Below are positions 4,018 to 40,337 of a stretch of 44,766 bases of DNA, piece by piece (position 1 is the first letter of the stretch; every line of letters starts with the position of its first letter). The position numbers and the translations under genes were made by a program. Source of the stretch: Vectrevirus DIJ06P1; sequence record OZ035817.1; one strand, written 5' to 3'. The notes under the pieces were generated by a model, which saw nothing but the letters and a program-made list of their open reading frames with translations, did not search any database and had not been told where the DNA came from.

Positions 4018-4231
4018 GTTTCTAGAAGTGCTGGCAGGTCTTATTGGCCTGCTTGTCTCTGCTAAGAAGAAACAAGAAGAGAAGGAGGCACAAAGTGAAG
4101 CGAATCATGTTAGTGACAATCCTGCTGATTGGTTCGCTGACCACTTCCGGGTGTCAGCAGGCGTTACCAGAGAAAGCAATGGTGAAACCTCTGAGGCCGA
4201 CGCTGACGGAAGTTTACGAGGTAGACGATAA
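4010..4231 (+). CDS. putative i-spanin (Rz-like), unusually short
   Basis: N-terminal hydrophobic segment FLEVLAGLIGLLVSA then charged region; overlaps a lipoprotein ORF in another frame. Confidence 0.35.
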   Translation: MNKFLEVLAGLIGLLVSAKKKQEEKEAQSEANHVSDNPADWFADHFRVSAGVTRESNGETSEADADGSLRGRR

Positions 4232-4304
4232 GGTCTGCTTTAGTAAGCCTGACGCTACAAAATTAGGTTTGTATATTCTTTCGCTGGAACGCGGATATAA
4301 TTAA
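4095..4304 (+). CDS. putative o-spanin (Rz1-like lipoprotein)
   Basis: GTG at 4095 (or ATG at 4107) after GAAGGAGG; signal peptide plus lipobox LTTSGC; starts inside the 4010..4231 ORF in a different frame. Confidence 0.5.
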   Translation: MKRIMLVTILLIGSLTTSGCQQALPEKAMVKPLRPTLTEVYEVDDKVCFSKPDATKLGLYILSLERGYN

Positions 4305-4333
4305 TACATAGCTTTATGTATCAGTGTCTTACG

Positions 4334-4356
4334 ATTTACTGGACACTATAGAAGAG
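4334..4356 (+). promoter_or_regulatory. SP6-type phage RNAP promoter
   Basis: ATTTACTGGACACTATAGAAGAGG about 80 nt upstream of tailspike 1. Confidence 0.75.
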
Positions 4357-4435
4357 GTAAGATAGCGCCGTTCTTTTGAGCGGCCTATTACTAGCCAATC
4401 TTCATAGGGAGGGTTGGAAAGTAATAGGAGATAGC

Positions 4436-6334
4436 ATGGCTAAATTAACCAAACCTAATACTGAAGGAATCTTGCATAAAGGACAATCTTTGTATGAGTA
4501 CCTTGATGCGAGAGTTTTAACATCAAAGCCGTTTGGTGCTGTAGGTGACGCCACTACTGATGATACGGAGGTTATAGCTGCTTCATTAAACTCTCAGAAA
4601 GCTGTCACAATCTCAGACGGTGTATTCTCTAGCTCTGGTATTAATAGTAATTACTGTAACTTAGACGGTAGAGGTAGTGGGGTGCTAAGTCACCGTTCCA
4701 GTACAGGTAACTACTTAGTATTTAACAATCCACGTACAGGTCGCTTAAGTAATATTACGGTAGAAAGTAATAAGGCGACTGATACAACTCAGGGACAGCA
4801 GGTATCTCTTGCCGGTGGAAGTGATGTTACTGTAAGTGACGTTAACTTCTCAAACGTTAAAGGTACTGGTTTCAGTTTAATCGCATACCCTAATGATGCG
4901 CCACCTGATGGACTTATGATTAAAGGTATTCGAGGTAGCTATTCAGGCTATGCTACTAATAAGGCAGCTGGATGCGTACTTGCTGACTCCTCAGTTAACT
5001 CCCTCATAGATAACGTCATTGCTAAGAACTACCCTCAGTTCGGAGCAGTAGAGTTGAAAGGTACAGCCAGTTACAACATAGTCAGTAATGTTATAGGGGC
5101 AGATTGCCAGCATGTAACTTACAACGGCACTGAAGGGCCAATAGCTCCTTCTAATAACCTTATCAATGGGGTAGTGGCTAATAATCCTAAGTATGCAGCG
5201 GTTGTTGCAGGCAAAGGTAGTACGAACTTAATATCAGATGTGCTCGTAGATTACTCAACCTCTGATGCTAGGCAGGCTCATGGTGTTACAGTAGAGGGTT
5301 CTGATAACGTCATAAATAATGTGCTTATGTCAGGATGTGATGGTACTAACTCTTTAGGACAAGGGCAGACTGCTACAATTGCACGCTTTATAGGTACAGC
5401 TAATAACAACTATGCGTCTGTATTTCCTAGCTACAGTGCTACAGGTGTTATTACTTTCGAATCCGGCTCTACCCGTAACTTCGTAGAGGTAAAGCACCCT
5501 GGCAGGAGAAACGACCTTCTCAGTTCTGCTAGTACTATTGACGGTGCAGCTACTATTGACGGCACTAATAATAGTAACGTAGTGCACGCACCTGCCTTAG
5601 GGCAGTACATAGGTAGTATGTCAGGTAGGTTCGAATGGCGGATTAAGTCCATGTCACTCCCTTCAGGCGTTCTTACTTCTGCTGATAAGTACAGAATGCT
5701 TGGGGATGGTGCTGTATCATTAGCTTTAGGTGGGGGTACTTCTTCTCAAGTTCGCCTATTTACTTCTGATGGTACTTCTCGGACAGTGTCCCTCACCAAC
5801 GGTAACGTGCGTCTTTCTACCAGTAGCACAGGCTATTTGCAGTTAGGTGCTGATGCAATGACCCCAGACAGTACTGGTACATACGCATTAGGTTCCGCCA
5901 GCCGAGCATGGTCTGGCGGTTTTACTCAAGCAGCATTCACTGTTACCTCAGATGCTCGGTGTAAAACAGAACCTCTCACTATCTCAGATGCCTTACTGGA
6001 TGCTTGGTCTGAAGTTGACTTTGTGAAGTTTCAGTATTTGGATCGTGTTGAGGAGAAGGGTGCAGACTCAGCTAGATGGCACTTCGGTATCATCGCTCAG
6101 CGAGCTAAGGAGGCTTTCGAACGTCACGGTATAGATGCACATCGCTATGGCTTTTTGTGCTTCGACAGTTGGGATGATGTATACGAGGAAGATGCAGATG
6201 GCTCTCGTAAACTGATTACACCAGCAGGTTCCCGCTACGGTATTCGTTACGAGGAAGTGCTGATATTAGAGGCTGCGTTGATGCGGAGGACTATTAAGCG
6301 TATGCAGGAAGCACTAGCTTCCCTGCCTAAGTAA
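4436..6334 (+). CDS. tailspike 1, beta-helix with C-terminal intramolecular chaperone (S74-like) domain
   Basis: ATG at 4436 after GGAG; Gly/Ser/Thr/Asn-rich repeats typical of a right-handed beta-helix; C-terminus SDARCK...WHFGIIAQRAKEAF resembles auto-cleaving chaperone domains. The ORF-track start at 4376 is probably too early. Confidence 0.8.
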   Translation: MAKLTKPNTEGILHKGQSLYEYLDARVLTSKPFGAVGDATTDDTEVIAASLNSQKAVTISDGVFSSSGINSNYCNLDGRGSGVLSHRSSTGNYLVFNNPRTGRLSNITVESNKATDTTQGQQVSLAGGSDVTVSDVNFSNVKGTGFSLIAYPNDAPPDGLMIKGIRGSYSGYATNKAAGCVLADSSVNSLIDNVIAKNYPQFGAVELKGTASYNIVSNVIGADCQHVTYNGTEGPIAPSNNLINGVVANNPKYAAVVAGKGSTNLISDVLVDYSTSDARQAHGVTVEGSDNVINNVLMSGCDGTNSLGQGQTATIARFIGTANNNYASVFPSYSATGVITFESGSTRNFVEVKHPGRRNDLLSSASTIDGAATIDGTNNSNVVHAPALGQYIGSMSGRFEWRIKSMSLPSGVLTSADKYRMLGDGAVSLALGGGTSSQVRLFTSDGTSRTVSLTNGNVRLSTSSTGYLQLGADAMTPDSTGTYALGSASRAWSGGFTQAAFTVTSDARCKTEPLTISDALLDAWSEVDFVKFQYLDRVEEKGADSARWHFGIIAQRAKEAFERHGIDAHRYGFLCFDSWDDVYEEDADGSRKLITPAGSRYGIRYEEVLILEAALMRRTIKRMQEALASLPK

Positions 6335-6419
6335 GCAACAGGCAGTGCGTAAGCACTGCTTTTCACGCAACTTTTCTTAAAGGTTATCATGGTGGTAGCC
6401 TTTCAGAAAAGGAGGGTAC

Positions 6420-8471
6420 ATGCTACAAAGATTAGGGGCTTCCATGGTGAAGTTCAAGAGTAAACTCGCTGGTTCCATCGAACGTATACTCTCAGACAAG
6501 TTAATGGATACTGTAAGCGTTAAAGACTTTGGCGCTAAAGGAGATGGTATCACAGATGATACTGCTGCTTTCAAAGCAGCAATAACTTGTGGCGCATCTA
6601 GGGTATTAGTACCTGCAGGCAGGTATGTGATTACTGACACACTTTCTTTGCCATCTGGGGTCTGGTTATTTGGTGAAGGTGTTGACTATTGGGACACCTA
6701 TCGTCCAGACGAGGGTAGGCTTATTAAGTCATGGAGTAAAGGAACGCACCTTGTGTTCACTGGTAGTGGGTCTAAAAACAAGCAATTTCTTAATATCTCT
6801 AATGAACGCCCAACAAAGACAATAAATGGAGTAACTTGCTCTTTTACCGACTTCACTAATAGTGATGCACAAGTAACAGAACCTGCTACACCACGTAGTA
6901 TGAGTATTGCTGTATCAGTACAGGCAGGCAGTGGCTTACGCGATCTTCGTATTATGGTAAACAATGAAGGTATCTCTGGTTACAATGACTTTGTTTCTAC
7001 AAACAAGCTAGGTGACAACTGGGATATTGGGTTGCATGTATATGACAGCTCAGATGCTGTAATTGATAATGTGCAAGTTGTTGGCTATTGGAAGGTTGCA
7101 GGTACACTCTTAACGGAGAACGACGGCTCCATCACAATGCGTGGTAATCCAGAGAAGACACTATTTAATAAGTTCTACACTCAAGGTATCAGAGGTTTAC
7201 TTATTAGGAATAGCCCGCAAGTAGATGTAGTATCTCAAGAGTCAGCAACCAAGTTAACCATTAAAGCGAATGCTACTTCCCGTATATTAGCACAAAATGG
7301 TTTTCGAGTAGCAGGTAGTACTACGATACATAGATGGACTAGTGTTACAAGACAAGGAGACACTTATGTATTAGATGGCATCACACCTGAGTTACCTTCT
7401 GCTTCTGGCCTCGGGGTTGTTCGTTTCCCATCTATGGGTAACAATTGGTCTGGTACAGTGTTCAACAATACTGTTGCTGTGTCCTTTGAGCACTCATCCG
7501 GTAGAACCTCAAGACAACTAGGACTTCCTGTATCTTTTGCTATGGAGATTGATGGCTTCCCTTGTCGTAACCTCAAATTCATAAACTTCAAGGCACAGAC
7601 TTCTTACGATGAAGGAAATACATTGTTTGGTGATATGCGCGATGCCAAGTTTGTGGCTAGCGAGTTCGAGAATGGTAGGCTGATTGCGTATGATTTGTCT
7701 CAGACTCAAGGGTATACTGGTAATATGCGGTCTGCTGTGTCTGACATGCAGTTTCATTCCACTAATATTGAAGGCTTCACACCACGTGATTTCTTCTATG
7801 ACCTAGGACATTTTCCTACTTCTTATACTGATGGTTCTTTTATCATGAAGCATTGGCGAGAAAAGGATTTACAGGTACAATGGTATAATGGTAAAGCATT
7901 CATCCATCTACATGAAGATGATGGCCGTGTAACACTTACCAGTAAAGGCGGTCTAGATTTGTATAACTTTAGTTCTACAAAAGACGTGACGTTCAAGGGT
8001 CGCAACTTTGTATTCAAAAACGATGCAAGTGAAGACGTATTGAAGTGGTTTGGCGGTTCAGGGAATATCTCTACGAAAGGAAACATCTCGCCTATGGTAG
8101 ATGGGGTTGCCTCTCTGGGTACAAATTCCTATCGCTGGGGCGCAGTGCATTCAGTAAATGGGACGTTACAAACCTCTGACGGTAGGCTAAAGGAGATCCA
8201 CGATATTAAACAAGAAGAACTTGATGCGGGGATTGCATTATCAGCAAGTCTAATCAAGTATCGTTGGTATGGAGAAGAAAAGTTCCACTTTGGTTGTATT
8301 GCCCAAGAGGTAATGTTAATCATGGAGAAACATAATCTAGACCCATTACAGTATGGAATGGTGCAGTATGATGAAGAGGCAGACATCTTTAGTGTAAACT
8401 ATGCTGAATTGAACAGCTTCTGCATCGCAGCTCTGTCTAGGAGGTTGAATGCCATTAATCAAATCAGTTAA
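6420..8471 (+). CDS. tailspike 2, pectate-lyase-like beta-helix with C-terminal intramolecular chaperone domain
   Basis: ATG after AAAGGAGGG; VKDFGAKGDGITDDTAAFKAAI is a pectate-lyase-superfamily N-terminal motif; C-terminus SDGRLK...FHFGCIAQEV parallels tailspike 1. Confidence 0.8.
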   Translation: MLQRLGASMVKFKSKLAGSIERILSDKLMDTVSVKDFGAKGDGITDDTAAFKAAITCGASRVLVPAGRYVITDTLSLPSGVWLFGEGVDYWDTYRPDEGRLIKSWSKGTHLVFTGSGSKNKQFLNISNERPTKTINGVTCSFTDFTNSDAQVTEPATPRSMSIAVSVQAGSGLRDLRIMVNNEGISGYNDFVSTNKLGDNWDIGLHVYDSSDAVIDNVQVVGYWKVAGTLLTENDGSITMRGNPEKTLFNKFYTQGIRGLLIRNSPQVDVVSQESATKLTIKANATSRILAQNGFRVAGSTTIHRWTSVTRQGDTYVLDGITPELPSASGLGVVRFPSMGNNWSGTVFNNTVAVSFEHSSGRTSRQLGLPVSFAMEIDGFPCRNLKFINFKAQTSYDEGNTLFGDMRDAKFVASEFENGRLIAYDLSQTQGYTGNMRSAVSDMQFHSTNIEGFTPRDFFYDLGHFPTSYTDGSFIMKHWREKDLQVQWYNGKAFIHLHEDDGRVTLTSKGGLDLYNFSSTKDVTFKGRNFVFKNDASEDVLKWFGGSGNISTKGNISPMVDGVASLGTNSYRWGAVHSVNGTLQTSDGRLKEIHDIKQEELDAGIALSASLIKYRWYGEEKFHFGCIAQEVMLIMEKHNLDPLQYGMVQYDEEADIFSVNYAELNSFCIAALSRRLNAINQIS

Positions 8472-8796: not shown

Positions 8797-9461
8797 CCAA
8801 AGTCAAAATTTTGATGTAGGCGTGTGTCAGCTCTCTCGCCCTCGCCCTCGCCGGGTTGCCCCCATAGGGTGGCCTGAGGGAATCCGTCGAAGACGGGTAG
8901 GGCTGATGTACTCCTTCGCTAGTACAAGGGAGGCGGGGAATGCCTAGGAAGCGCTAGGGCACGCCTTAGTATTGGACAAGGTGATTGCCTTAGTGAAGCC
9001 TCTTAGTACATTCCTGAGGCCATTCAGGGCGTTTATGAGGCATTGACAGGGTGGATGGGTGTGGGCTATCTGTTCGTTTCGCTACGCTTCACTCACTGCT
9101 CCTCACTTCGTTCGTCGCTGCGGTAGCCTGATGTGTACCTTAGGTTATTACTTGATGGATAGCTTAGGTTATAGCTTAGTGACCTACCTTAGTTATAACC
9201 TTAGTGCATAGCTTAGTATCAGCTTAGTAGTGTACCTTAGTAAGTCTTAGTGTCTTCTCTTAGTGATTGCACATGCAAGCATGTAAGATGCCATTAGGTC
9301 GCGGTCGGTAGACCGCTAAAGAAGGAGAGTAGTAATAAGATGCAGTAGGAGGAACACCAGAAGCCTCGCCAACCTAGCCTATCCTAGCTCTGTATCTATT
9401 GCTTTTCCTTAGTCTCACATGATAGACAACCTATCTTATTCCTAGTGATGATAACTTAGTG

Positions 9462-9490
9462 TTGACAAGATAATCTTAGTGTAATACTAT
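9462..9490 (+). promoter_or_regulatory. candidate host sigma70 early promoter
   Basis: TTGACA, 17-nt spacer, TACTAT; upstream of the first early ORF. Confidence 0.45.
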
Positions 9491-9562
9491 GCATCACGTA
9501 GGCGGTGCTGAGGCACCTAGTAGCCAGCTAGTAAGGCATACGAAGAGACTAGCGCTTACATT

Positions 9563-9575
9563 GCTCTTTAACAAT
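9563..9575 (+). repeat. GCTCTTTAACAAT 13-mer, copy 1 of 3
   Basis: Exact 13-mer repeated at 10108 and 10320 in early non-coding leaders. Confidence 0.6.
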
Positions 9576-9633
9576 TTGCTTAGTGTAACCTATGTATGCC
9601 GTGGTTAATTACTTATTGAATGAGGGATTAACT

Positions 9634-12218: not shown

Positions 12219-14846
12219 ATGCAAGACTTACACGCTATTCAACTTCAACTTGAAGAAGAAATGTTTAACGGCGGTATCCGTCGCTTTGAAGCGGACCAAC
12301 AGCGCCAGATTGCATCCGGTAATGAATCAGACACGGCATGGAATCGCCGCTTATTGTCCGAGTTAATTGCGCCAATGGCTGAAGGTATTCAGGCATACAA
12401 GGAAGAGTATGAAGGTAAAAGAGGCCGTGCACCGCGTGCATTAGCTTTCATTAACTGCGTAGAAAATGAAGTGGCAGCGTATATCACGATGAAAATCGTT
12501 ATGGATATGCTGAACACGGATGTAACCTTGCAGGCTATAGCCATGAATGTAGCTGACCGCATTGAGGACCAAGTACGTTTTAGCAAGCTGGAAGGTCACG
12601 CCGCCAAATACTTTGAAAAAGTTAAGAAGTCACTTAAGGCAAGTAAGACTAAATCATATCGCCATGCGCACAACGTAGCGGTAGTGGCTGAGAAGTCAGT
12701 AGCTGACCGTGACGCTGATTTCTCCCGCTGGGAGGCATGGCCTAAAGACACCTTGCTGCAAATTGGGATGACCTTGCTTGAAATCTTAGAGAATAGCGTA
12801 TTCTTCAACGGGCAACCTGTCTTCCTCCGCACCTTGCGCACTAATGGCGGCAAACATGGTGTTTACTACCTACAGACTAGTGAACACGTAGGTGAGTGGA
12901 TAACTGCATTTAAAGAACATGTAGCGCAACTTAGTCCAGCCTATGCACCTTGCGTTATTCCTCCGCGTCCGTGGGTATCACCCTTTAACGGTGGGTTTCA
13001 TACTGAGAAAGTAGCAAGCCGTATTCGTCTGGTAAAAGGCAATCGTGAGCACGTCCGCAAGCTGACCAAAAAGCAAATGCCAGCGGTTTACAAGGCTGTT
13101 AACGCTTTGCAGGCGACTAAGTGGCAGGTTAATAAAGAGGTTTTACAGGTTGTGGAGGACGTTATACGTCTAGACCTCGGCTATGGTGTACCTTCCTTTA
13201 AACCACTCATCGACCGTGAGAACAAGCCAGCTAATCCGGTGCCGTTAGAGTTCCAGCACCTGCGAGGCCGTGAACTGAAAGAAATGCTTACGCCGGAACA
13301 ATGGCAAGCCTTTATCAACTGGAAAGGTGAATGTACTAAGCTGTACACCGCTGAAACTAAGCGCGGAAGCAAATCGGCGGCAACCGTTCGCATGGTCGGT
13401 CAGGCCCGTAAATATAGCCAGTTCGACGCAATCTACTTCGTGTATGCACTGGACAGCCGCAGCCGTGTATACGCGCAATCTAGCACACTCTCACCGCAAT
13501 CAAATGACTTGGGCAAGGCCTTGCTCCGTTTTACCGAAGGGCAGCGTCTTGATAGCGCTGAGGCGCTTAAGTGGTTTTTGGTGAACGGGGCTAATAACTG
13601 GGGTTGGGATAAGAAAACTTTTGACGTGCGCACTGCTAACGTGCTGGATAGTGAATTTCAAGACATGTGCCGCGACATTGCAGCCAACCCGCTGACCTTC
13701 ACTCAATGGGTGAATGCTGATTCCCCTTATGGCTTCCTTGCATGGTGCTTTGAATATGCGCGTTATCTGGATGCACTGGACGAAGGAACGCAAGACCAAT
13801 TCATGACGCACCTACCCGTCCATCAAGATGGTAGTTGCTCTGGTATCCAGCACTATAGCGCGATGTTACGAGATGAAGTAGGTGCGAAAGCAGTAAACCT
13901 TAAGCCTTCTGACTCCCCTCAAGATATTTATGGCGCGGTTGCGCAGGTTGTTATCCAGAAGAATTACGCCTACATGAATGCAGACGACGCAGTGACTTTC
14001 ACATCCGGAAGCGTCACACTTACAGGTGCAGAACTGCGTAGCATGGCTAGTGCGTGGGATATGATAGGAATCACTCGCGGATTGACCAAAAAGCCCGTAA
14101 TGACACTACCTTATGGCAGCACACGTCTAACCTGCCGTGAATCAGTGATTGATTATATCGTTGATTTAGAAGAAAAAGAGGCCCAACGGGCTATTGCGGA
14201 AGGGCGTACCGCCAATCCTGTACACCCTTTTGATAATGACCGTAAAGACAGCCTGACACCTAGCGCAGCTTATAACTATATGACAGCTTTAATCTGGCCT
14301 TCTATTTCGGAAGTGGTTAAAGCTCCTATAGTGGCAATGAAAATGATTCGTCAGCTTGCCCGTTTCGCAGCTAAAAGGAATGAAGGCTTAGAGTATACCC
14401 TGCCTACTGGCTTCATCTTGCAACAAAAGATTATGGCTACTGATATGCTCCGCGTATCTACTTGCTTGATGGGAGAAATCAAGATGAGTCTACAGATTGA
14501 AACGGACGTAGTAGATGAAACGGCAATGATGGGCGCTGCTGCTCCTAACTTTGTGCATGGTCATGATGCCAGTCACCTTATCTTAACGGTCTGCGACCTT
14601 GTTGATAAAGGGATTACATCTATCGCAGTAATTCATGATTCTTTTGGCACTCATGCAGGCCGTACAGCCGATCTACGCAACAGCTTAAGGGCAGAAATGG
14701 TGAAAATGTACCAAGGCCGTAATGCACTGCAAAGCCTGCTAGATGAGCACGAAGAACGCTGGTTAGTTGATACAGGAATCCAAGTACCAGAGCAAGGGGA
14801 GTTTGACCTTAACGAAATCTTAGTTTCAGACTATTGCTTCGCATAA
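12219..14846 (+). CDS. single-subunit DNA-directed RNA polymerase, SP6 type
   Basis: 875 aa; hallmark blocks [24 protein letters not shown] and IHDSFGTH; very close to SP6 RNAP as I recall it, consistent with the SP6-type promoters. Confidence 0.95.
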
Positions 14847-14854
14847 TATTAATA

Positions 14855-14885
14855 GGCCATTCCTTCGGGGGTGGCCTTTCTTTTA
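14855..14885 (+). terminator. intrinsic terminator after the RNAP gene (early terminator analogue)
   Basis: GGCCAUUCC-UUCG-GGGGUGGCC hairpin with UUCG tetraloop, followed by UUUCUUUU. Confidence 0.65.
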
Positions 14886-14919
14886 CCTACTACCTGTAAC
14901 ATTTCATTAACATAAACGT

Positions 14920-14935
14920 GTCTCACACGTGAGAC
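14920..14935. repeat. palindrome GTCTCA-CACG-TGAGAC, copy a
   Basis: One of six copies of GTCTCA-N4-TGAGAC; abuts the promoter at 14938. Confidence 0.7.
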
Positions 14936-14937
14936 TT

Positions 14938-14960
14938 ATTTACCGGACACTATAGGATAA
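14938..14960 (+). promoter_or_regulatory. SP6-type phage RNAP promoter (first of tandem pair)
   Basis: ATTTACCGGACACTATAGGATAA. Confidence 0.7.
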
Positions 14961-15100
14961 CCGTCGGAGACGGAAAGAGAAGGGAAGATAAGGATATAAA
15001 GGAAGTAATAGGTATTAAAGGTTATATAGGTTTACCTAGGAATACCTATTACCTTCTTCCTTCCTCTTATTACTACTTAGAGGAAGGTCAGACCTAAGTT
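14956..15100. other. AT-rich region with purine tract and 11-bp inverted repeat between tandem promoters (putative primary origin or RNA processing site)
   Basis: TAATAGGTATT (15006-15016) and AATACCTATTA (15041-15051) inverted; purine run 14966-15010; placement mirrors the T7 origin downstream of gene 1. Confidence 0.4.
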
Positions 15101-15116
15101 GTCTCACATGTGAGAC
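15101..15116. repeat. palindrome GTCTCA-CATG-TGAGAC, copy b
   Basis: Perfect 16-bp palindrome just before the promoter at 15122. Confidence 0.7.
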
Positions 15117-15121
15117 TTCGT

Positions 15122-15143
15122 ATTTACCGGACAGTATAGATAA
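15122..15143 (+). promoter_or_regulatory. SP6-type phage RNAP promoter, variant (second of tandem pair)
   Basis: ATTTACCGGACAGTATAGATAA; CAGTATAG instead of CACTATAG. Confidence 0.5.
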
Positions 15144-15302
15144 GACTAACTTACTTTGGAGATTTAACCATGCGTAACTTTGAGAAGATGACCCGTAAAG
15201 CTAACCGTTTTGACATGGAAGAAGGGGCAGACGAAAGGCAAGAAGCTGAATAAACCTGTCCGTGACCGTGCATCTAAACGCGCAGCATGGGAGTTCTGAG
15301 TT

Positions 15303-15521
15303 ATGGCTAAATACAGAATCAAGACCTGTTTAAATAGTCACGGGCAAGAGTTCTACGTAGTGCAACGTAAAGTATTAGGCTTAATATGGGTCACTTGTAT
15401 GATGCCTATTGGCTATACTGATACAGAGGCTATCTTCTGCACCGAAAGGGATGCAAAGAAGTTTATCTCTAAGCGTAGAAAAGCTGACTCTTACCAACCT
15501 AGAATTATTAAGGTGAACTAA
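15303..15521 (+). CDS. hypothetical protein
   Basis: 72-aa ORF; stop overlaps the primase-helicase start. Confidence 0.45.
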   Translation: MAKYRIKTCLNSHGQEFYVVQRKVLGLIWVTCMMPIGYTDTEAIFCTERDAKKFISKRRKADSYQPRIIKVN

Positions 15522-17509
15522 TGGCTATTATTAATAACATCCCGTGCCCTGCCTGCCAGAAGAATGGGCACGATAAATCCGGCAATCATCTCATGATATT
15601 TGATGATGGTGCTGGCTATTGTAACCGTGGTCACTTCCATGATAATGGGAAGCCCTATTACCATAAGCCAGAGGGTGGTATCGAGATAACCGAATTGCCT
15701 ATTACTGGCAATATCAAATATACACCTTCTCAATTCAAAGAAATGGAGAAGGAAGGGAAGATAAGCGACCCTAAGCTACGCGCCATCGCTCTTGGTGGTA
15801 TGCGTATGAAAGACCGTTGGGAGGTCATGAATGAGCAAGAAAGGGCAGAGCAAGAAGCAGAGTGGAAACTTGATGTTGAATGGTTCCTCACGCTTAAGCG
15901 TAAGAACCTTGTTTCCAGACACATTCGCGGCGACATTTGCGCATTGTATGATGTACGTGTTGGGCACGATGAAGAGGGTAGAGTCTCACGGCATTACTAT
16001 CCACGCTTCGAAAAAGGTGAGCTAGTAGGCGCTAAGTGTCGTACCTTACCTAAAGATTTCAAGTTTGGACACTTAGGTAAACTCTTTGGTATGCAAGATC
16101 TTTTCGGTATGAATATTTTGTCTCACGTGTTAGACAAGGGAAGACGAAAGGATTGCTTGCTTATTGTGGGTGGGGAACTGGATGCACTAGCAGCGCAGCA
16201 GATGCTCCTTGATTCTGCCAAGGGTACTAAGTGGGAAGGTCAACCTTACCATGTATGGTCTGTTAACAAAGGGGAGTCTTGCCTTGAAGAGATTGTGCAG
16301 AACCGTGAACACATCGCCCAATTCAAGAAGATTATTTGGGGCTTCGATGGGGATGAGGTAGGGCAGAAGCAGAACCAGCAAGCGGCTCGCCTGTTCCCTG
16401 GCAAATCCTATATCCTTGAATATCCCTCTGGTTGCAAAGATGCTAACAAGGCATTGATGGCTGGCAAGGCTAAAGAATTTGTAGATGCATGGTTTAATGC
16501 CAAGTCATCTGATGAAGTCTTTGGTAGCCAGATTAAATCTATCGCATCTCAAAGGGATAAGCTCAAGGCTGCACGTCCAGAGCAAGGACTATCATGGCCT
16601 TGGCCTAAGCTGAACAAGGTAACGCTAGGTATTCGTAAGAACCAGCTTATCATTGTAGGTGCAGGGTCTGGTGTAGGTAAGACTGAGTTCCTTCGTGAAG
16701 TAGTTAAGCACCTCATTGAAGAACACGGTGAATCTGTAGGCATCATTTCTACAGAAGACCCGATGGTCAAGGTGTCCCGTGCTTTTATCGGCAAGTGGAT
16801 TGATAAGCGTATTGAGTTACCGCCAACCAACGACCCGAAAGAAGACGGATACCGTGAGGTGTTCGACTACACCGAGGAAGAAGCTAACGCCGCCATTGAT
16901 TATGTAGCTGATACAGGTAAGCTGTTTGTAGCTGACCTAGAGGGTGACTATTCGATGGAAAAGGTAGAGCAAACTTGCCTAGAGTTTGAGGCTATGGGCA
17001 TTTCTAATATCATCATTGATAACTTAACGGGGATTAAATTAGATGAGCGTGCTTTTGGTGGGAAGGTTGGTGCACTTGATGAATGCGTCAAGCGGATTGG
17101 TACTATCAAAGACCGACACCCGGTTACTATATTCCTTGTATCACACCTTACACGTCCTCCGGCAAACCGTACCCAACACGAAGAAGGTGGCGAAGTTATC
17201 CTTTCTGACTTCCGAGGCTCAGGAGCTATCGGATTCTGGGCATCTTACGCCTTGGGGATTGAGCGTAATACAAGAGCTGAAACGCTTGACGAAAGGACTA
17301 CCACGTACATCTCATGTGTCAAAGACCGCGACCAAGGTATCTACACTGGAACCAAGGTCATGCTTAAGGGTGACATTCAAACCGGACGTTTAATGGAACC
17401 ACAAGCCCGTACTAAGTCATTTGATACAGGTGAAGCAAGGCAACAAGAAGTACCAGATTTACCGGACACTATAGAAGAGACTAACTTCGATGAAGAAAGT
17501 GAGTTCTGA
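15521..17509 (+). CDS. DNA primase/helicase (T7 gp4-like)
   Basis: N-terminal Zn finger CPACQ...CNRGH; Walker A GAGSGVGKTEF; acidic C-terminal tail ending DEESEF. Confidence 0.9.
   Translation: MAIINNIPCPACQKNGHDKSGNHLMIFDDGAGYCNRGHFHDNGKPYYHKPEGGIEITELPITGNIKYTPSQFKEMEKEGKISDPKLRAIALGGMRMKDRWEVMNEQERAEQEAEWKLDVEWFLTLKRKNLVSRHIRGDICALYDVRVGHDEEGRVSRHYYPRFEKGELVGAKCRTLPKDFKFGHLGKLFGMQDLFGMNILSHVLDKGRRKDCLLIVGGELDALAAQQMLLDSAKGTKWEGQPYHVWSVNKGESCLEEIVQNREHIAQFKKIIWGFDGDEVGQKQNQQAARLFPGKSYILEYPSGCKDANKALMAGKAKEFVDAWFNAKSSDEVFGSQIKSIASQRDKLKAARPEQGLSWPWPKLNKVTLGIRKNQLIIVGAGSGVGKTEFLREVVKHLIEEHGESVGIISTEDPMVKVSRAFIGKWIDKRIELPPTNDPKEDGYREVFDYTEEEANAAIDYVADTGKLFVADLEGDYSMEKVEQTCLEFEAMGISNIIIDNLTGIKLDERAFGGKVGALDECVKRIGTIKDRHPVTIFLVSHLTRPPANRTQHEEGGEVILSDFRGSGAIGFWASYALGIERNTRAETLDERTTTYISCVKDRDQGIYTGTKVMLKGDIQTGRLMEPQARTKSFDTGEARQQEVPDLPDTIEETNFDEESEF
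17457..17480 (+). promoter_or_regulatory. SP6-type phage RNAP promoter inside the 3' end of the primase-helicase gene
   Basis: ATTTACCGGACACTATAGAAGAGA, full consensus match. Confidence 0.6.
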
Positions 17510-17530
17510 TTAGTGTATTTATCAGGGCTT

Positions 17531-17546
17531 GTCTCACATGTGAGAC
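17531..17546. repeat. palindrome GTCTCA-CATG-TGAGAC, copy c
   Basis: Flanks extend the stem (CTTGTCTCACATGTGAGACAGG); same extended sequence as copy f. Confidence 0.7.
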
Positions 17547-17585
17547 AGGCTCTTATTAAGTACATTAAATAACTGGAGATTGATT

Positions 17586-18498: not shown

Positions 18499-18674
18499 AC
18501 ATAGTCTTAAAATGTTCGATGGTCATGAAGACCTGCAAGCCAAGATTACTAACCAAGCCTTCATGTTTGCACAGTTAACTATGGCTGAAGCAAAGAAGAA
18601 TAGCCTGACGCGTGAACAGGTTATCAAGGAAAGTGAAGTGAAACGTAAGATTCGCAGTCGATAAGTCAAGGGTT

Positions 18675-18690
18675 GTCTCACACGTGAGAC
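18675..18690. repeat. palindrome GTCTCA-CACG-TGAGAC, copy d
   Basis: Intergenic, upstream of the DNA polymerase gene. Confidence 0.7.
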
Positions 18691-18815
18691 AGCCTTTCAT
18701 CATATTGATTGGAGGTGCATTATGCCACGTGATTATGATTCTGATTGGGACTATTATGACTCAATGAATCCAAAACCCGAACGTTCAGATGATTACTACG
18801 AAACAGAGGCAATGT

Positions 18816-21633: not shown

Positions 21634-21894
21634 ATGATTAAATCACAGAAGTATTTCTCAACTAAAGATCGTAAGGTAGGTTTTGAAATCAAAGTTTGGG
21701 AAGACGGACACATTACTATTATTTACGAAGGTAAAGGTTCTAATGGTATGATGCTACGTAGATGCCGTACATTCACAAAGAAAGAATGTATGCATATGTC
21801 TGAATGCATGTTTCTTTACATCATTGCTGATGATATTAAAGGTATGAAGCTAATTGTATCTCTACCTTTAATACCTAAATCTTTGTTAGGTTGA
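21634..21894 (+). CDS. hypothetical protein
   Basis: 86-aa ORF, AT-rich. Confidence 0.45.
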   Translation: MIKSQKYFSTKDRKVGFEIKVWEDGHITIIYEGKGSNGMMLRRCRTFTKKECMHMSECMFLYIIADDIKGMKLIVSLPLIPKSLLG

Positions 21895-21918
21895 TTTACT
21901 GGACACTATAGAAGGAAA
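21894..21918 (+). promoter_or_regulatory. SP6-type phage RNAP promoter
   Basis: ATTTACTGGACACTATAGAAGGAAAG; followed by a TAGGT-repeat leader. Confidence 0.75.
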
Positions 21919-21980
21919 GCCTAGGTAATCTAGGTTTATAAGGTAGTATGGGTAATTAAGTAAATATAGGAGATATAAAT

Positions 21981-22358
21981 ATGTCAATGGTAACTACTCT
22001 GGTATTTGTAGCTCAATACTTTCGTGGTCTGGCTAATAAGTTCAAATCCAAGGCTATCAAAGCTATTGAGTCTCGCATCGAGGCAGTACAGGCAGAGCAA
22101 GTTAAAGTTGAAGAACATCGTAGTTCTCAAATGATTGACTGTCATAACCGCTACTATGCATCTCGTGATGAACTAAATGCACGTCAAGTCAAAGAGGTAG
22201 AAGATATGCTGGCACGTCACCAGCAAGAGCGTGACAGCCTGAAAGCTGAATTTGAAGAGAACAAGGCATCAATTGCTCTTGTAAATCAAGCTGCATCTGA
22301 CAGCCTGAAGAAAGAGATTGTTATGCTGGAAATAGAACTGGACAACTTGTCTAAATAA
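21981..22358 (+). CDS. hypothetical coiled-coil protein
   Basis: ATG after AGGAG; hydrophobic N-terminus then heptad-like charged region. Confidence 0.5.
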   Translation: MSMVTTLVFVAQYFRGLANKFKSKAIKAIESRIEAVQAEQVKVEEHRSSQMIDCHNRYYASRDELNARQVKEVEDMLARHQQERDSLKAEFEENKASIALVNQAASDSLKKEIVMLEIELDNLSK

Positions 22359-37325: not shown

Positions 37326-40273
37326 TGGCAATTGAGCGACAAGCAGTACAAGGTCTGCCACAAGTGCAGGCCACTTCTCCTAATGTCATGACCTTTGCAC
37401 CTCAGCGAGTTGGAGGTGTGGAGGCTGGCGTAGCTTCTACCTCCGGTAGTCGATTTATCGAAGACCTTATTCGAGCAGCCAGTAGTGTAGCTGATGTAAC
37501 CACTGGTATCCTTAATCAAAAGATTGAGGAAGATAAGGTTGTTCAAATGGAACGGGCATATAACGGATTAATGCCTTCTGAGGATGCAACTCGTGGTGGC
37601 GCTCGTGCTAACATGCTTGTCAAAGCTCAACTGCTAGCTAATGATGAAGCAGCACGAATGAAAGACATGGCTACTCGTTTCCAAGGGACGGATGACGAGT
37701 GGACACAACTTATGGTTGACTCTCGTAATGAGATGCAGAATAAGCTGTTCCAGCAATACCCTGAGTTGCAAGGTGACAAAGATACTATGCGTATGGTCAC
37801 TAATGTCTTCCAAGAACAGCAGCCTCAGATTTGGGCGACACGAACCCAGCATAAACTTGACCGTGAACAAGCAGACCGTGAGGATATCTTTGACGGGCGA
37901 GTGGCTTCTACTTGGGATTCTAATATTGACCCTGAAGCATCTGGCTATGCTTTACAGGAACGAATCCGCGAAGGTCTTACTCAAGGATTACTACCTGAAC
38001 AGATGCACAAGAAGTTAGTCCAGCGAGCAATTTCACTTGCACAAGGCGGTGATGTTAGCATGGCTGAAGCCCTGAAGTATGTGAAGGACGATAAGGGTGT
38101 TTCTGTTTATGCTAAGAATCCACAGCTTATCACAGCCATCACTAGTGGTAATGCAGTTTGGGCTAGGAATAATGTAGCTGATGTAACTCGTATGTCTTTC
38201 GAAGTTAAAGAATCCTACCTTGCAGGTGATTTAACTGATGAAGAATTGTTGGAACGAGCACAGCACATTAATAATCTGACAGGTAACTCTGTCTTCTCTA
38301 ATCCAGAGCTAGAGGCACTGATGCGCCAACGGGCTAAGCAGAATGCAGAGCTAGGTGCAATGCAGGATATGCGACGTGAGCTTTACTCCGACCGCCTGAC
38401 TGGCTTCCAAGGTAAGACTGATAAAGAGAAGAAGGCTTACATTGATGTTATCAAACAGGATAGCCAACTTTATGCAGACCAGCAAATCAAACAACGTGGC
38501 TTGGACCCTTACAGTCAAGAGGCTGAAGCTATTCGTGGTGCAGTGGAAGTGCAGCGCCTGCAATTCATGAACTCCAAAGGCTTAGTGGATGATACCTTTG
38601 AGTCTCGTATCAAAGCCATGGAATCTATGCTATCGCCTGAGCACTTTGCCAAGGGCGAACCACAGGAGTTGATGACTATTCGCCAGTTGTGGGAACAGTT
38701 GCCAGAAGAGAGCCGAGGTGTCTTTGGTGACACGGTGAATGGCTACATGGATAACTACAACACTGCACTACAAATGGGAGAGACACCTTTGCAGGCTGCA
38801 AGGTTTGCGCGTGAAGCACAGCAGAAATTCTCTCGTACTGAGAAGGAAACCAAGAAGTTCAACTCAGCTATTGGAGATGCACTGGATGAGGTATCTGGTG
38901 CTGGCTGGTTTGATGGTAAAACCGAAGTGTCAGACTTAGGTAAAGCTATTGCGGAAGAAGAGTTACGAGCTAAGGCCAATATGTTGTGGTCTAGTGGTAT
39001 GCGTAACATGGATTCTATCAAGAAGGCTTTAATTACTTGGGGCAATAAACGCTACACTCAAACAGAGGATGCAAAGACTTCCGGTGGCTATTTCATTAAA
39101 GGTGATTACACTTCTGCATCTGATATGCTTATGTCAGTTGGGAAAGGCGTAAACCCTACCGATGTACCTCTGGCGCTTGGTAGGTATGTAGAAACACAGA
39201 TGCCAGAATTGAAGAAGGAGCTTCAAGAGTGGGAAACTAAAGATGATATATACATTGATTACAATGAACAGAAAGGTACTTTCGTGATTCGTGCTGGTGC
39301 AGCAGGTCGCCCTCTTTCTGGAGTAATCCCTGTAACCTCTTTAGATACCACTTCACTACTAGATTCTGCCTATCAGAAGAAAGTAGAGGAACGAGATAAA
39401 GGCGAGTATGTTCACCCTTATCGTACAGATATTGGTGCACAAGAGCCTATGCCAGCTAAACCAACTGCCAAAGATATTGGTAAATTTGGACTAGCTAACT
39501 TCCTCATGTCTTCTGCTTTTGCTTCTGGTGAGAATCTGCCTTCTAACTTCGAGATTAACTATCGAGGTAATATGCAACAATTCTATGACAAGCTAGCTAT
39601 GGATGAGAATAAAGATAAAGTTGGCTTTAATAAGGCAACTGGAACCTTTACTCCATATAAAGATGCTCACGGTGAGTCTATCGGTTACGGTCATTTCTTA
39701 ACGGAAGAAGAGAAGCGAAACGGGTATATTAAGATTGGTGATGAACTAGTTCCCTATCGAGGGTCTATGTCTCAGCTTACAGAGAGCAAGGCTCGCGCTC
39801 TTATGGAGCAAGATGCCAAGAAGCATGTGCCTTCTACTCGTGACTGGAAGATTCCGTTTGACCAGATGCATCCTGCACAGCAACGTGGCTTGATGGATTT
39901 AACCTACAATTTAGGTAAAGGTGGAATCCAGAACTCACCGCGTGCTCTTGCTGCATTCAAAGCTGGTAAGCTTACGGAAGGCTTTATCGAAATGCTGGGC
40001 ACTGCATCAAGTGAAGGTAAGCGTATCCCTGGTCTACTGAAGCGACGCGCTGAGGCATACAATATGGCATCTGCTGGTGGTGTGCCTAAGATTACCGAAG
40101 TGGAGACTCGTGAAGATGGCTCCATGTGGGTTAGGTTTGGTGGACCTATGCCAGCAGGTTCTGTCTCGGCATGGACTCATAAACGTATTGGCGCGGATGG
40201 TTGGTATCAGGTTTATGAGGCTGCACCTACCAAGTTAGCTAAAGGTTCTAAGGTAGGTAAATTTAAGTTGTAG
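37325..40273 (+). CDS. internal virion protein with C-terminal lysozyme-like domain
   Basis: 982 aa; C-terminal segment DENKDKVGFNKATGTFTPYKDAHGESIGYGHFL parallels the T4 lysozyme catalytic region. Confidence 0.8.
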   Translation: MAIERQAVQGLPQVQATSPNVMTFAPQRVGGVEAGVASTSGSRFIEDLIRAASSVADVTTGILNQKIEEDKVVQMERAYNGLMPSEDATRGGARANMLVKAQLLANDEAARMKDMATRFQGTDDEWTQLMVDSRNEMQNKLFQQYPELQGDKDTMRMVTNVFQEQQPQIWATRTQHKLDREQADREDIFDGRVASTWDSNIDPEASGYALQERIREGLTQGLLPEQMHKKLVQRAISLAQGGDVSMAEALKYVKDDKGVSVYAKNPQLITAITSGNAVWARNNVADVTRMSFEVKESYLAGDLTDEELLERAQHINNLTGNSVFSNPELEALMRQRAKQNAELGAMQDMRRELYSDRLTGFQGKTDKEKKAYIDVIKQDSQLYADQQIKQRGLDPYSQEAEAIRGAVEVQRLQFMNSKGLVDDTFESRIKAMESMLSPEHFAKGEPQELMTIRQLWEQLPEESRGVFGDTVNGYMDNYNTALQMGETPLQAARFAREAQQKFSRTEKETKKFNSAIGDALDEVSGAGWFDGKTEVSDLGKAIAEEELRAKANMLWSSGMRNMDSIKKALITWGNKRYTQTEDAKTSGGYFIKGDYTSASDMLMSVGKGVNPTDVPLALGRYVETQMPELKKELQEWETKDDIYIDYNEQKGTFVIRAGAAGRPLSGVIPVTSLDTTSLLDSAYQKKVEERDKGEYVHPYRTDIGAQEPMPAKPTAKDIGKFGLANFLMSSAFASGENLPSNFEINYRGNMQQFYDKLAMDENKDKVGFNKATGTFTPYKDAHGESIGYGHFLTEEEKRNGYIKIGDELVPYRGSMSQLTESKARALMEQDAKKHVPSTRDWKIPFDQMHPAQQRGLMDLTYNLGKGGIQNSPRALAAFKAGKLTEGFIEMLGTASSEGKRIPGLLKRRAEAYNMASAGGVPKITEVETREDGSMWVRFGGPMPAGSVSAWTHKRIGADGWYQVYEAAPTKLAKGSKVGKFKL

Positions 40274-40290
40274 TATCTAACTCAAGGCTT

Positions 40291-40306
40291 GTCTCACATG
40301 TGAGAC
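40291..40306. repeat. palindrome GTCTCA-CATG-TGAGAC, copy f
   Basis: Extended context GGCTTGTCTCACATGTGAGACAGG identical to copy c. Confidence 0.7.
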
Positions 40307-40337
40307 AGGTCTTTATGATAGGCACTATGGAGGAATT

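Follow-up and report, generated by a model that had tools for sequence, protein, structure and literature searches.

The stretch of DNA analysed here (the window) is the 44,766-nucleotide (nt) sequence of Vectrevirus DIJ06P1, record OZ035817.1, and the element under study is the 323-bp spacer that separates its gene for a single-subunit RNA polymerase (RNAP) from gene 8, the homologue of T7 gene 1.1. In this spacer, the elements of a predicted boundary between early and middle transcription flank an easily melted tract that may act as a replication origin of the T7 type. The best megablast match of positions 14700-15400, among 88 phage records, was Vectrevirus T147P1 (99.6%), and the next were K1E, K1-5, LL11 and many Escherichia phages at 93-98%, with Salmonella SP6-type phages at 60-80%. 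By these matches, the window is the complete genome of a K1E/K1-5-type podophage (Autographiviridae, Molineuxvirinae, genus Vectrevirus), circularly permuted with respect to K1E, the RNAP gene lying at 12219-14846 here and at 4104-6731 in K1E.

The relatives compared were K1E, K1-5, LL11, R4596, T205P4 and ULINTec7 on the Vectrevirus side; further away, SP6, UAB_Phi78, Kenya-K11, BP12B, PST_H2 and four Klebsiella phages; and, as distant and metagenomic members, a Proteus phage, Klebsiella phage VLCpiA2b, Erwinia phage Tapenade and 16 IMG/VR contigs. The order of elements is the same in all of them: terminator, GTC..GAC hairpin, promoter, short 5′ hairpin, AGG-rich and AT-rich tract, pyrimidine-rich mirror, (hairpin), second promoter and gene 8. 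The window spacer is 95-99% identical to the orthologous gene 7/gene 8 spacers of K1E, K1-5 and LL11 and, taken as a whole, ~71% identical to that of SP6; all the window elements are present in these four, in unchanged order. The following features were recognised, with the evidence for each in brackets.

12219-14846, + strand: gene for the single-subunit RNAP, 875 amino acids (aa) (list of open reading frames (ORFs); RNA polymerase annotation in K1E, K1-5 and LL11)
14854-14884, + strand: predicted intrinsic (Rho-independent) early terminator, stem-loop 14854-14877 plus T-run (fold, conservation, annotation in MK373771)
14882-14912, + strand: strongly conserved 31-bp block, TACCTACTACCTGTAACATTTCATTAACA (cross-genus alignment)
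14920-14935, + strand: GTC..GAC hairpin or palindrome, copy 1, bare 6-bp stem, -7 kcal/mol (syntenic with SP6 6093)
14938-14955, + strand: predicted phage RNAP promoter P1, perfect consensus, +1 at G14955 (motif scan, conserved position)
14961-14973, + strand: 5′ stem-loop of the predicted P1 transcript, CCGTC-GGA-GACGG, +7 to +19 (fold and covariation)
14981-15040, + strand: seven phased AGG motifs in AT-rich, purine-rich DNA (motif chain and duplex stability)
14999-15058, no strand assigned: imperfect inverted repeat centred on CCTAGG (arms 14999-15016 and 15041-15058)
15059-15087, + strand: pyrimidine tract with a 9-bp hairpin, CCTTCCTCT/AGAGGAAGG (repeat search, fold)
15101-15116, + strand: GTC..GAC hairpin or palindrome, copy 2, followed by TTCGTATTT (syntenic with SP6 6264)
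15122-15139, + strand: predicted phage RNAP promoter P2, one mismatch, +1 at G15139 (motif scan, conserved position)
15158-15298, + strand: Shine-Dalgarno sequence GGAG (15158-15161) and gene 8, T7 gp1.1 homologue, ATG at 15170 (Pfam, alignment)

The arms of the terminator, AGGCCATTCC and GGGGTGGCCT, form 10 pairs, 6 of them G-C, around a TTCG that gives a c(UUCG)g loop, and the T-run TTCTTTT (14878-14884) lies directly 3′ of the stem. The fold amounts to -17.2 kcal/mol, with z = -3.4 against shuffled sequences. The structure is kept in 30 of the 30 related loci with at least seven different stem sequences, among them GGCCATTCC/GGAGTGGCC, GGTCAGCC/GGCTGGCC, GGGAGGC/GCCTCCC and GGGCGGCC/GGTCGCCC after the RNAP stop codon, and with the T-run each time. 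Varied, co-varying stems joined to a constant T-run are the signature of a functional intrinsic terminator, and they strongly support a predicted terminator in which, where a transcription unit ends, structure rather than sequence has been kept. For SP6 and UAB_Phi78, a terminator downstream of the RNAP gene is on record already (PMC4837284), and one is annotated in MK373771. The strongest sigma-70-like early promoters in the 9100-9600 region and nearby are those at 9462 and 10046, and the stem-loop at 14854-14877 is the first strong terminator-like site downstream of them on the + strand, stronger than any other in the interval up to this point. There is strong support, then, for the prediction that transcription of the early region by host RNAP ends at 14854-14884.

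Transcription by the phage enzyme is predicted to resume shortly afterwards. The promoter motif ATTTACCGGACACTATAG (-17 to +1) occurs at 12 sites in the genome, all on the + strand, when 0.01 would be expected by chance; it is present with no mismatch at P1 and with one at P2 (C to G at -5), where the change falls inside the core (CAGTATAG instead of CACTATAG). Both promoters were found in Vectrevirus, Zindervirus, the Klebsiella phages and the Proteus phage, and the position of P1 is kept in all the relatives compared; in the spacer of the Erwinia phage no second promoter was seen. The departure of P2 from the consensus is itself conserved, as G at -5 in Vectrevirus and the Proteus phage and as T at -1 in Zindervirus and the Klebsiella phages. 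Phage RNAP is thus predicted, with strong support, to start at 14955 and 15139. P2, whose start lies 31 nt upstream of the gp1.1 homologue, would be a conserved sub-consensus variant driving the gp1.1/primase-helicase operon, which is also strongly supported by the motif and its position.

For P1, the evidence strongly favours a predicted non-coding RNA of ~165 nt that begins with a co-varying GGA-loop hairpin and then crosses the region's least stable duplex. No locus has a mispair at the middle pair of this hairpin, which is G-C in 26, A-T in 4, C-G in one and T-A in one, and all the loci compared share the GGA loop; such covariation indicates selection at the level of RNA (or of a single strand). 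On both strands of 14850-15165, no credible ORF of at least 20 aa with an ATG start or conservation was found. The 'hypothetical proteins' annotated in the spacer of two relatives were rejected as automatic calls. Rfam gave no match in the whole window at gathering thresholds; in the spacer region, with E up to 10, it gave sub-threshold matches alone, mostly to families of microRNA precursors, small nucleolar RNAs and small RNAs. Taken together, terminator and promoters strongly support the reading of this segment as the early/middle transcription boundary of an SP6/K1E-type phage.

The DNA between the two promoters is unusual in composition. The GC content of 14980-15039 is 30%, against ~45% for the genome, and the 167-nt stretch from P1 to P2 is 71% purine in its first half and 42% in its second. 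Within it, AGG occurs at 14981, 14991, 15000, 15010, 15019, 15028 and 15038, or, counted from the P1 start, at +27, 37, 46, 56, 65, 74 and 84. Neighbouring motifs are 9-10 bp apart, and their register from +1 is nearly constant in five lineages although the intervening bases differ (+29 to +77 in SP6, +27 to +74 in Klebsiella cp4, +31 to +96 in the Proteus phage and +19 to +68 in VLCpiA2b). The genome has no longer chain than this one of seven, and 200 genomes shuffled within 100-bp blocks gave five at most. Tandem Repeats Finder (TRF) detects just a short array of period 10 at 14967-14994, because the repeat units share little beyond AGG. The exact 10-mer GTARTAGGTA has three copies in 44.8 kb, one forward and two reversed, all of them at 14884-15052, within 170 bp. 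Shorter AGG arrays follow two other phage promoters, at 2658 and 21894, and the syntenic SP6 promoters at 37773 (with a chain of seven) and 12542 are likewise followed by AGG arrays.

An array of this kind might be a binding site in the DNA itself, the phased AGG(T/A)A and the three GTARTAGGTA sequences being bound by a phage or host protein that would regulate P1 and P2 (an early-to-middle switch) or bend the DNA. The regular 9-10 bp spacing with its conserved register, a chain length beyond all 200 shuffles, the confinement of the exact 10-mer to these 170 bp and a pyrimidine arm that is invariant within the genus, which suggests a constraint on sequence and not on pairing, all speak for such a role. 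However, a period of ~9.5 bp does not hold the sites on one face of B-DNA, and the AGG core alone is conserved between repeat units. Binding would, moreover, be compatible with an origin rather than exclusive of it, iterons being features of origins. As an explanation in its own right we consider it distinctly unlikely.

The same tract stands out in a nearest-neighbour scan of duplex stability, made in 60-bp windows over the whole genome and repeated on T7 and SP6. The three least stable 60-bp segments of the window begin 28-47 bp past the +1 of a phage promoter: that at 21922 follows promoter 21894, that at 2689 promoter 2658 and that at 14984 promoter 14938. The segment at 14984 is third in rank, at 3.1 standard deviations. 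About 1.6% of genome positions lie within 60 bp downstream of any of the 12 promoters, so that the placement of three of the three least stable segments there is far from chance. In SP6, the same three promoters stand out. T7 served as a positive control, and its four least stable windows, at 417, 5931, 18561 and 39248, lie directly downstream of phiOL (405), phi1.1B (5923), phi6.5 (18545) and phiOR (39229). We take phiOL to be a T7 origin as well as the others. In T7, phi1.1A and phi1.1B are the primary origins, phiOR and phi6.5 are secondary origins, and a T7 promoter is an essential part of every one of them (PMC8373140).

The tracts that accompany the other two promoters, each a promoter with a phased AGG(T) array (2658-2830 and 21894-21985), contain the two least stable 60-bp segments of the genome. 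The promoter at 2658 abuts the end of the ORF for the large terminase subunit (722-2659), a post-terminase position like that of phiOR, which lies at 39229 in T7, where gene 19 ends at 39130. With a phage promoter and a segment of minimal stability each, the two sites resemble phiOR, phiOL and phi6.5, and it is to the arrays at 2689 and 21922, not to the 14984 segment, that the T7 secondary origins correspond. We regard 2658-2740 and 21894-21945 as candidate alternative or secondary origins. No left-end promoter-plus-tract equivalent to phiOL was seen in the window.

The counterpart of the T7 primary origin is given by the neighbouring genes. K1E gp8 matches the Pfam family Phage_1_1 (PF08200) with E = 8e-16 and the truncated window copy with E = 2e-6, the SP6 gene SP6p09 bears the note 'gp1.1', and window gene 8 and T7 gene 1.1 open with identical DNA, ATGCGTAACTT. 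Since gene 8 is a homologue of T7 gp1.1, the spacer is the positional counterpart of the phi1.1A/phi1.1B region, for which the T7 record gives the end of gene 1 at 5822, phi1.1A at 5848, phi1.1B at 5923, gene 1.1 at 6007 and the terminator TE at 7588. The candidate tract lies ~15% from the left end in K1E coordinates, like the primary origin region of T7. In both phages there are tandem promoters with a hairpin between them (75 bp apart in T7, 184 bp here), and in both a duplex segment that is among the least stable in the genome comes directly after a promoter. On the other hand, the phased AGG array, the GGA-loop 5′ hairpin and the GTC..GAC hairpins are found here and T7 is without them, and the intrinsic terminator that directly follows the RNAP gene here has no partner in T7 until TE, 1.7 kb further on. 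The original prediction, made from the letters of the window, had described the whole arrangement as a mirror of T7. This is right for the position of the spacer between the RNAP gene and gene 1.1, as the Phage_1_1 match confirms, for the tandem promoters and for an AT-rich segment downstream of a promoter. It is inexact as regards the place of that segment, which in T7 follows phi1.1B, and as regards the early terminator, which in T7 is TE (7588), after the ligase gene. As T7 is without a terminator after gene 1, that parallel holds for the SP6-type phages and not for T7.

The hairpin between the promoters offers a different explanation of the spacer. The arms of the inverted repeat are 18 nt long with 89% complementarity and include a perfect 12-nt core (15005-15016/15041-15052, GTAATAGGTATT/AATACCTATTAC). 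The space between phi1.1A and phi1.1B in T7 also folds into a hairpin, which is presumably the R1.1 RNase III site. The window element could be its counterpart, that is, an RNA processing or leader element with no role in an origin, whose cleavage or folding would set the stability and translation of the gp1.1/primase-helicase messenger RNA. Besides the matching position, this would account for the hairpin predicted in the P1 transcript, a 17-bp stem with one bulge, and for the equivalent long hairpin in every genus despite sequence change: in each, a purine arm and a pyrimidine arm that are able to pair enclose a central CCTAGG. Several one-sided changes retain G.U pairs, and the co-varying 5′ GGA-loop hairpin shows selection at the RNA level on the P1 transcript.

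The pattern of change in the repeat is less favourable to that explanation. Between genera the dyad is kept, although its pairs cannot be aligned one to one, and among 15 distinct Vectrevirus sequences no compensatory double changes were found; the 3′ arm is invariant while the 5′ arm drifts, with 3 G.U cells and 6 broken cells. The fold is modest (z from -1.7 to -2.5 across lineages), and no strand asymmetry of folding was found, since in 4 of 7 lineages the fold of the minus strand is at least as good. At 21913, the AGG array is without a pyrimidine partner arm, which makes the array, not the hairpin, the common feature, and no Rfam family matches. Support for a selected RNA hairpin at the inverted repeat is therefore weak. 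A predicted R1.1-like RNase III site is possible, but it is not the best-supported reading, and an RNA processing element as the sole function of the spacer seems to us rather unlikely.

The two GTC..GAC palindromes, GTCTCACACGTGAGAC (14920-14935) and GTCTCACATGTGAGAC (15101-15116), lie 2 and 5 nt upstream of P1 and P2, each in the 16-bp form GTCTCAC(AC/AT)GTGAGAC. With them, the elements that the original prediction had listed for the spacer are all in place: the UUCG-tetraloop terminator directly after the RNAP gene (-17.2 kcal/mol, z = -3.4, with its T-run in 30/30 loci), phage promoters at 14938 and 15122 (2 of the 12 + strand sites against 0.01 expected), a copy of the palindrome before each (14920 and 15101) and, between the promoters, an AT-rich stretch with a purine tract (GC 30%, first half 71% purine). 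Only the inverted repeat, present as foreseen, was given too short at 11 bp, its perfect core being 12 bp within an imperfect repeat of 18 bp.

Genome-wide, 8 sites match the palindrome with at most 3 mismatches, and 6 of these with at most 1, when 0.23 would be expected. Copies lie at 14920, 15101, 16120, 17531, 18675, 23778 and 40291, with a degenerate copy at 9412, and the syntenic copies in SP6 are, in matching order, at 6093, 6264, 7071, 8547, 9383, 14255, 30569 and 493. The SP6 version, GTC(C/T)AAC..GTTGGAC, differs from that of Vectrevirus on both arms, and 6 of 9 SP6 copies carry T.G at one position. In + strand RNA this would be a U.G, which is tolerated, and on the opposite strand it would be a mismatch, C.A; this suggests an element that acts at the RNA level. 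The copies at 17531, 18675 and 40291 come after stop codons; their stems, G.U pairs included, reach ~13 bp (-18 to -20 kcal/mol), and their tails are U-rich. They belong to a 46-nt repeat family (17511-17556, 18655-18700 and 40271-40316) made up of stop codon, extended GTC..GAC hairpin and U-rich tail, syntenic with SP6 8547, 9383 and 30569, whose members are probably phage-RNAP terminators or stabilisers of 3′ ends. SP6 is reported to have seven terminators for its phage RNAP, the nearest start site being only 14 bp away (PMC11347151). These features suggest that the family consists of RNA hairpins predicted to terminate or pause phage RNAP or to protect 3′ ends; both copies in the spacer are of the bare, weak form (-7 to -8 kcal/mol).

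If the second copy did end the P1 transcript, the product might be an abundant, discrete small non-coding RNA of ~165-170 nt, reaching from P1 to this hairpin and its U-rich tail and carrying the 5′ GGA hairpin and Shine-Dalgarno-like AGG repeats. It would act in trans and might, for instance, titrate ribosomes or a host protein that binds RNA. Copy 2 with TTCGTATTT was indeed flagged as terminator-like, and the extended hairpins with U-rich tails after the stop codons at 17531, 18675 and 40291, the + strand U.G wobble of most SP6 copies and the seven SP6 terminators (PMC11347151) are in keeping with this. But the bare hairpin of copy 2 is weak (-7.7 kcal/mol), Rfam holds no homologous RNA family, and the GGA motifs needed for binding of the CsrA type are replaced by AGGU in other genera, so that we judge a trans-acting RNA to be very unlikely. 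A CsrA sponge, with its GGA loop and GGA repeats, was for the last reason rejected as a general explanation.

The reading that we prefer for the segment, to which we give a probability of about 0.5, is that of a transcription-activated replication origin of the T7 type, either the primary one or one of three. A promoter joined to a readily melted tract is the sequence-level definition of such an origin, which 14938-15040 fits as do two other sites, and the spacer also occupies the position of the primary origin, with the RNAP gene on one side and the gene 1.1 homologue on the other. Under this reading, host RNAP coming from the left-end sigma-70 promoters would stop at the terminator right after the RNAP gene. 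By analogy with phi1.1A/B, the purine-rich transcript started at P1 would remain in a hybrid with its pyrimidine template within the easily melted tract, and copy 2 of the GTC..GAC hairpin, with the U-rich tail behind it, would make the polymerase pause or stop. As in T7, the phage DNA polymerase might then extend the RNA rightward from its 3′ end, and the primase-helicase, encoded just downstream, could load on the displaced strand and make replication bidirectional. A purine-rich transcript that persists as an RNA-DNA hybrid and primes the leading strand, as proposed here, recalls the R-loop-primed origins of the ColE1 type. The latter differ in their use of host RNAP, RNase H processing and Pol I, and the likeness is mechanistic alone, without homology of sequence or structure.

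Several observations weigh against an origin in the spacer, or against its being the primary one. The tracts at 2689 and 21922 are at least as easily melted as that at 14984, so that it is synteny that earns the latter the label 'primary'. The AT-rich tract lies between the promoters here and after phi1.1B in T7. The palindromes, judged by their distribution, are not specific to the origin but form a genome-wide hairpin family syntenic with that of SP6, and an AT-rich leader with Shine-Dalgarno-like sequences could instead act at the RNA level. GC skew is monotonic and positive across the genome and gives no origin signal. The SP6 primase recognises the triplet 5′-GCA-3′, which is absent from the P1-P2 stretch of the window and in most relatives occurs there within GGGCAGAC; a trinucleotide, however, is without statistical weight. 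Origin activity has been shown for T7 and is a prediction for the window, and no experimental origin mapping for SP6-type phages was found in the accessible literature. One paper, in garbled wording, credits Dobbins et al. (2004) with having suggested an SP6 origin near the DNA polymerase gene.

It is tempting to see in the AGG arrays an origin code specific to the Molineuxvirinae, in which they would serve as iterons for a loading factor or as a sequence that stabilises an R-loop, the P1 primer RNA being bounded by the GGA hairpin at its 5′ end and a GTC..GAC hairpin at its 3′ end, unlike the plain AT-rich segment of T7. We offer this as a speculation with rather little chance of being correct.

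The phage family, its promoters and its terminators are already well described, the spacer is 95-99% identical to published genomes, and a specialist in T7 would expect an origin here, in a layout that is ordinary for the family. What the comparison usefully adds is the phased AGG array, the co-varying GGA hairpin and the stability result at three sites. They extend a known T7 principle to a sister subfamily and do not describe a new kind of system. The simple criterion of a phage promoter combined with the minimum of duplex stability in the genome recovers all the documented T7 origins, and the comparison yields three concrete origin candidates in SP6-type phages. Phages of the SP6/K1-5/K1E type are used in phage therapy against K1 Escherichia coli and are the source of the SP6 RNAP and promoter that serve as a tool. 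The 5′ GGA hairpin, the phased AGG array and the GTC..GAC hairpins are conserved non-coding elements that phage engineers would do well to spare.

Between the terminator and the first palindrome, the block at 14882-14912 is nearly invariant in Vectrevirus, Zindervirus and the Klebsiella phages, in a spacer that is otherwise ~71% identical, and it is absent from the Proteus, VLCpiA2b and Erwinia relatives. It is a single copy in the genome and includes one exact GTARTAGGTA on the minus strand. No site within it passed a scan for sigma-70 promoters. A likeness of its ACCTGTAACATTT to the Class II (ATCTGTT-like) pause signal was dropped as no more than a resemblance, the block being single-copy; CCTGTWACA occurs 3 times in the genome against 0.9 expected, and none of these is at the genome end.

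Point differences alone separate the window spacer from its close relatives. An A to G change in the 3′ arm of the terminator (listed at 14884), peculiar to the window, turns a U-A pair into U.G, and a second such change, G to T at 15093, lies in GGGCAGAC and removes the sole GCA between P1 and P2. The third is an extra G in gene 8, GGGG at 15224-15227 where T147P1, LL11, K1E, K1-5 and all the IMG/VR relatives have GGG; it shifts the frame and leaves a gp1.1 homologue of 27 aa instead of 42, and may be either a homopolymer sequencing error or a real knockout.

Genes for HNH homing endonucleases are inserted at or next to the spacer in LL11, UAB_Phi78, BP12B, PST_H2 and Erwinia Tapenade, at the position of 15300-15520 in the window; the insert of PST_H2 separates the AGG array from P2. 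To judge from these cases, homing insertions are tolerated at this locus, which is a hot spot for them.

Two further copies of the palindrome lie in settings of their own. That at 16120-16135, with 2 mismatches, falls inside the primase-helicase gene (15521-17509), ~200 codons in and at the same place as in SP6 (7071), and it adjoins ATG codons that are in frame, a setting reminiscent of T7 gene 4 with its internal 4A/4B start. The degenerate copy at 9412 is found near the inferred physical left end of the genome, at 9100-9600, together with many CTTAGT(G/A) repeats at intervals of ~10-12 bp that resemble the short repeat arrays near the ends of the T7 genome.

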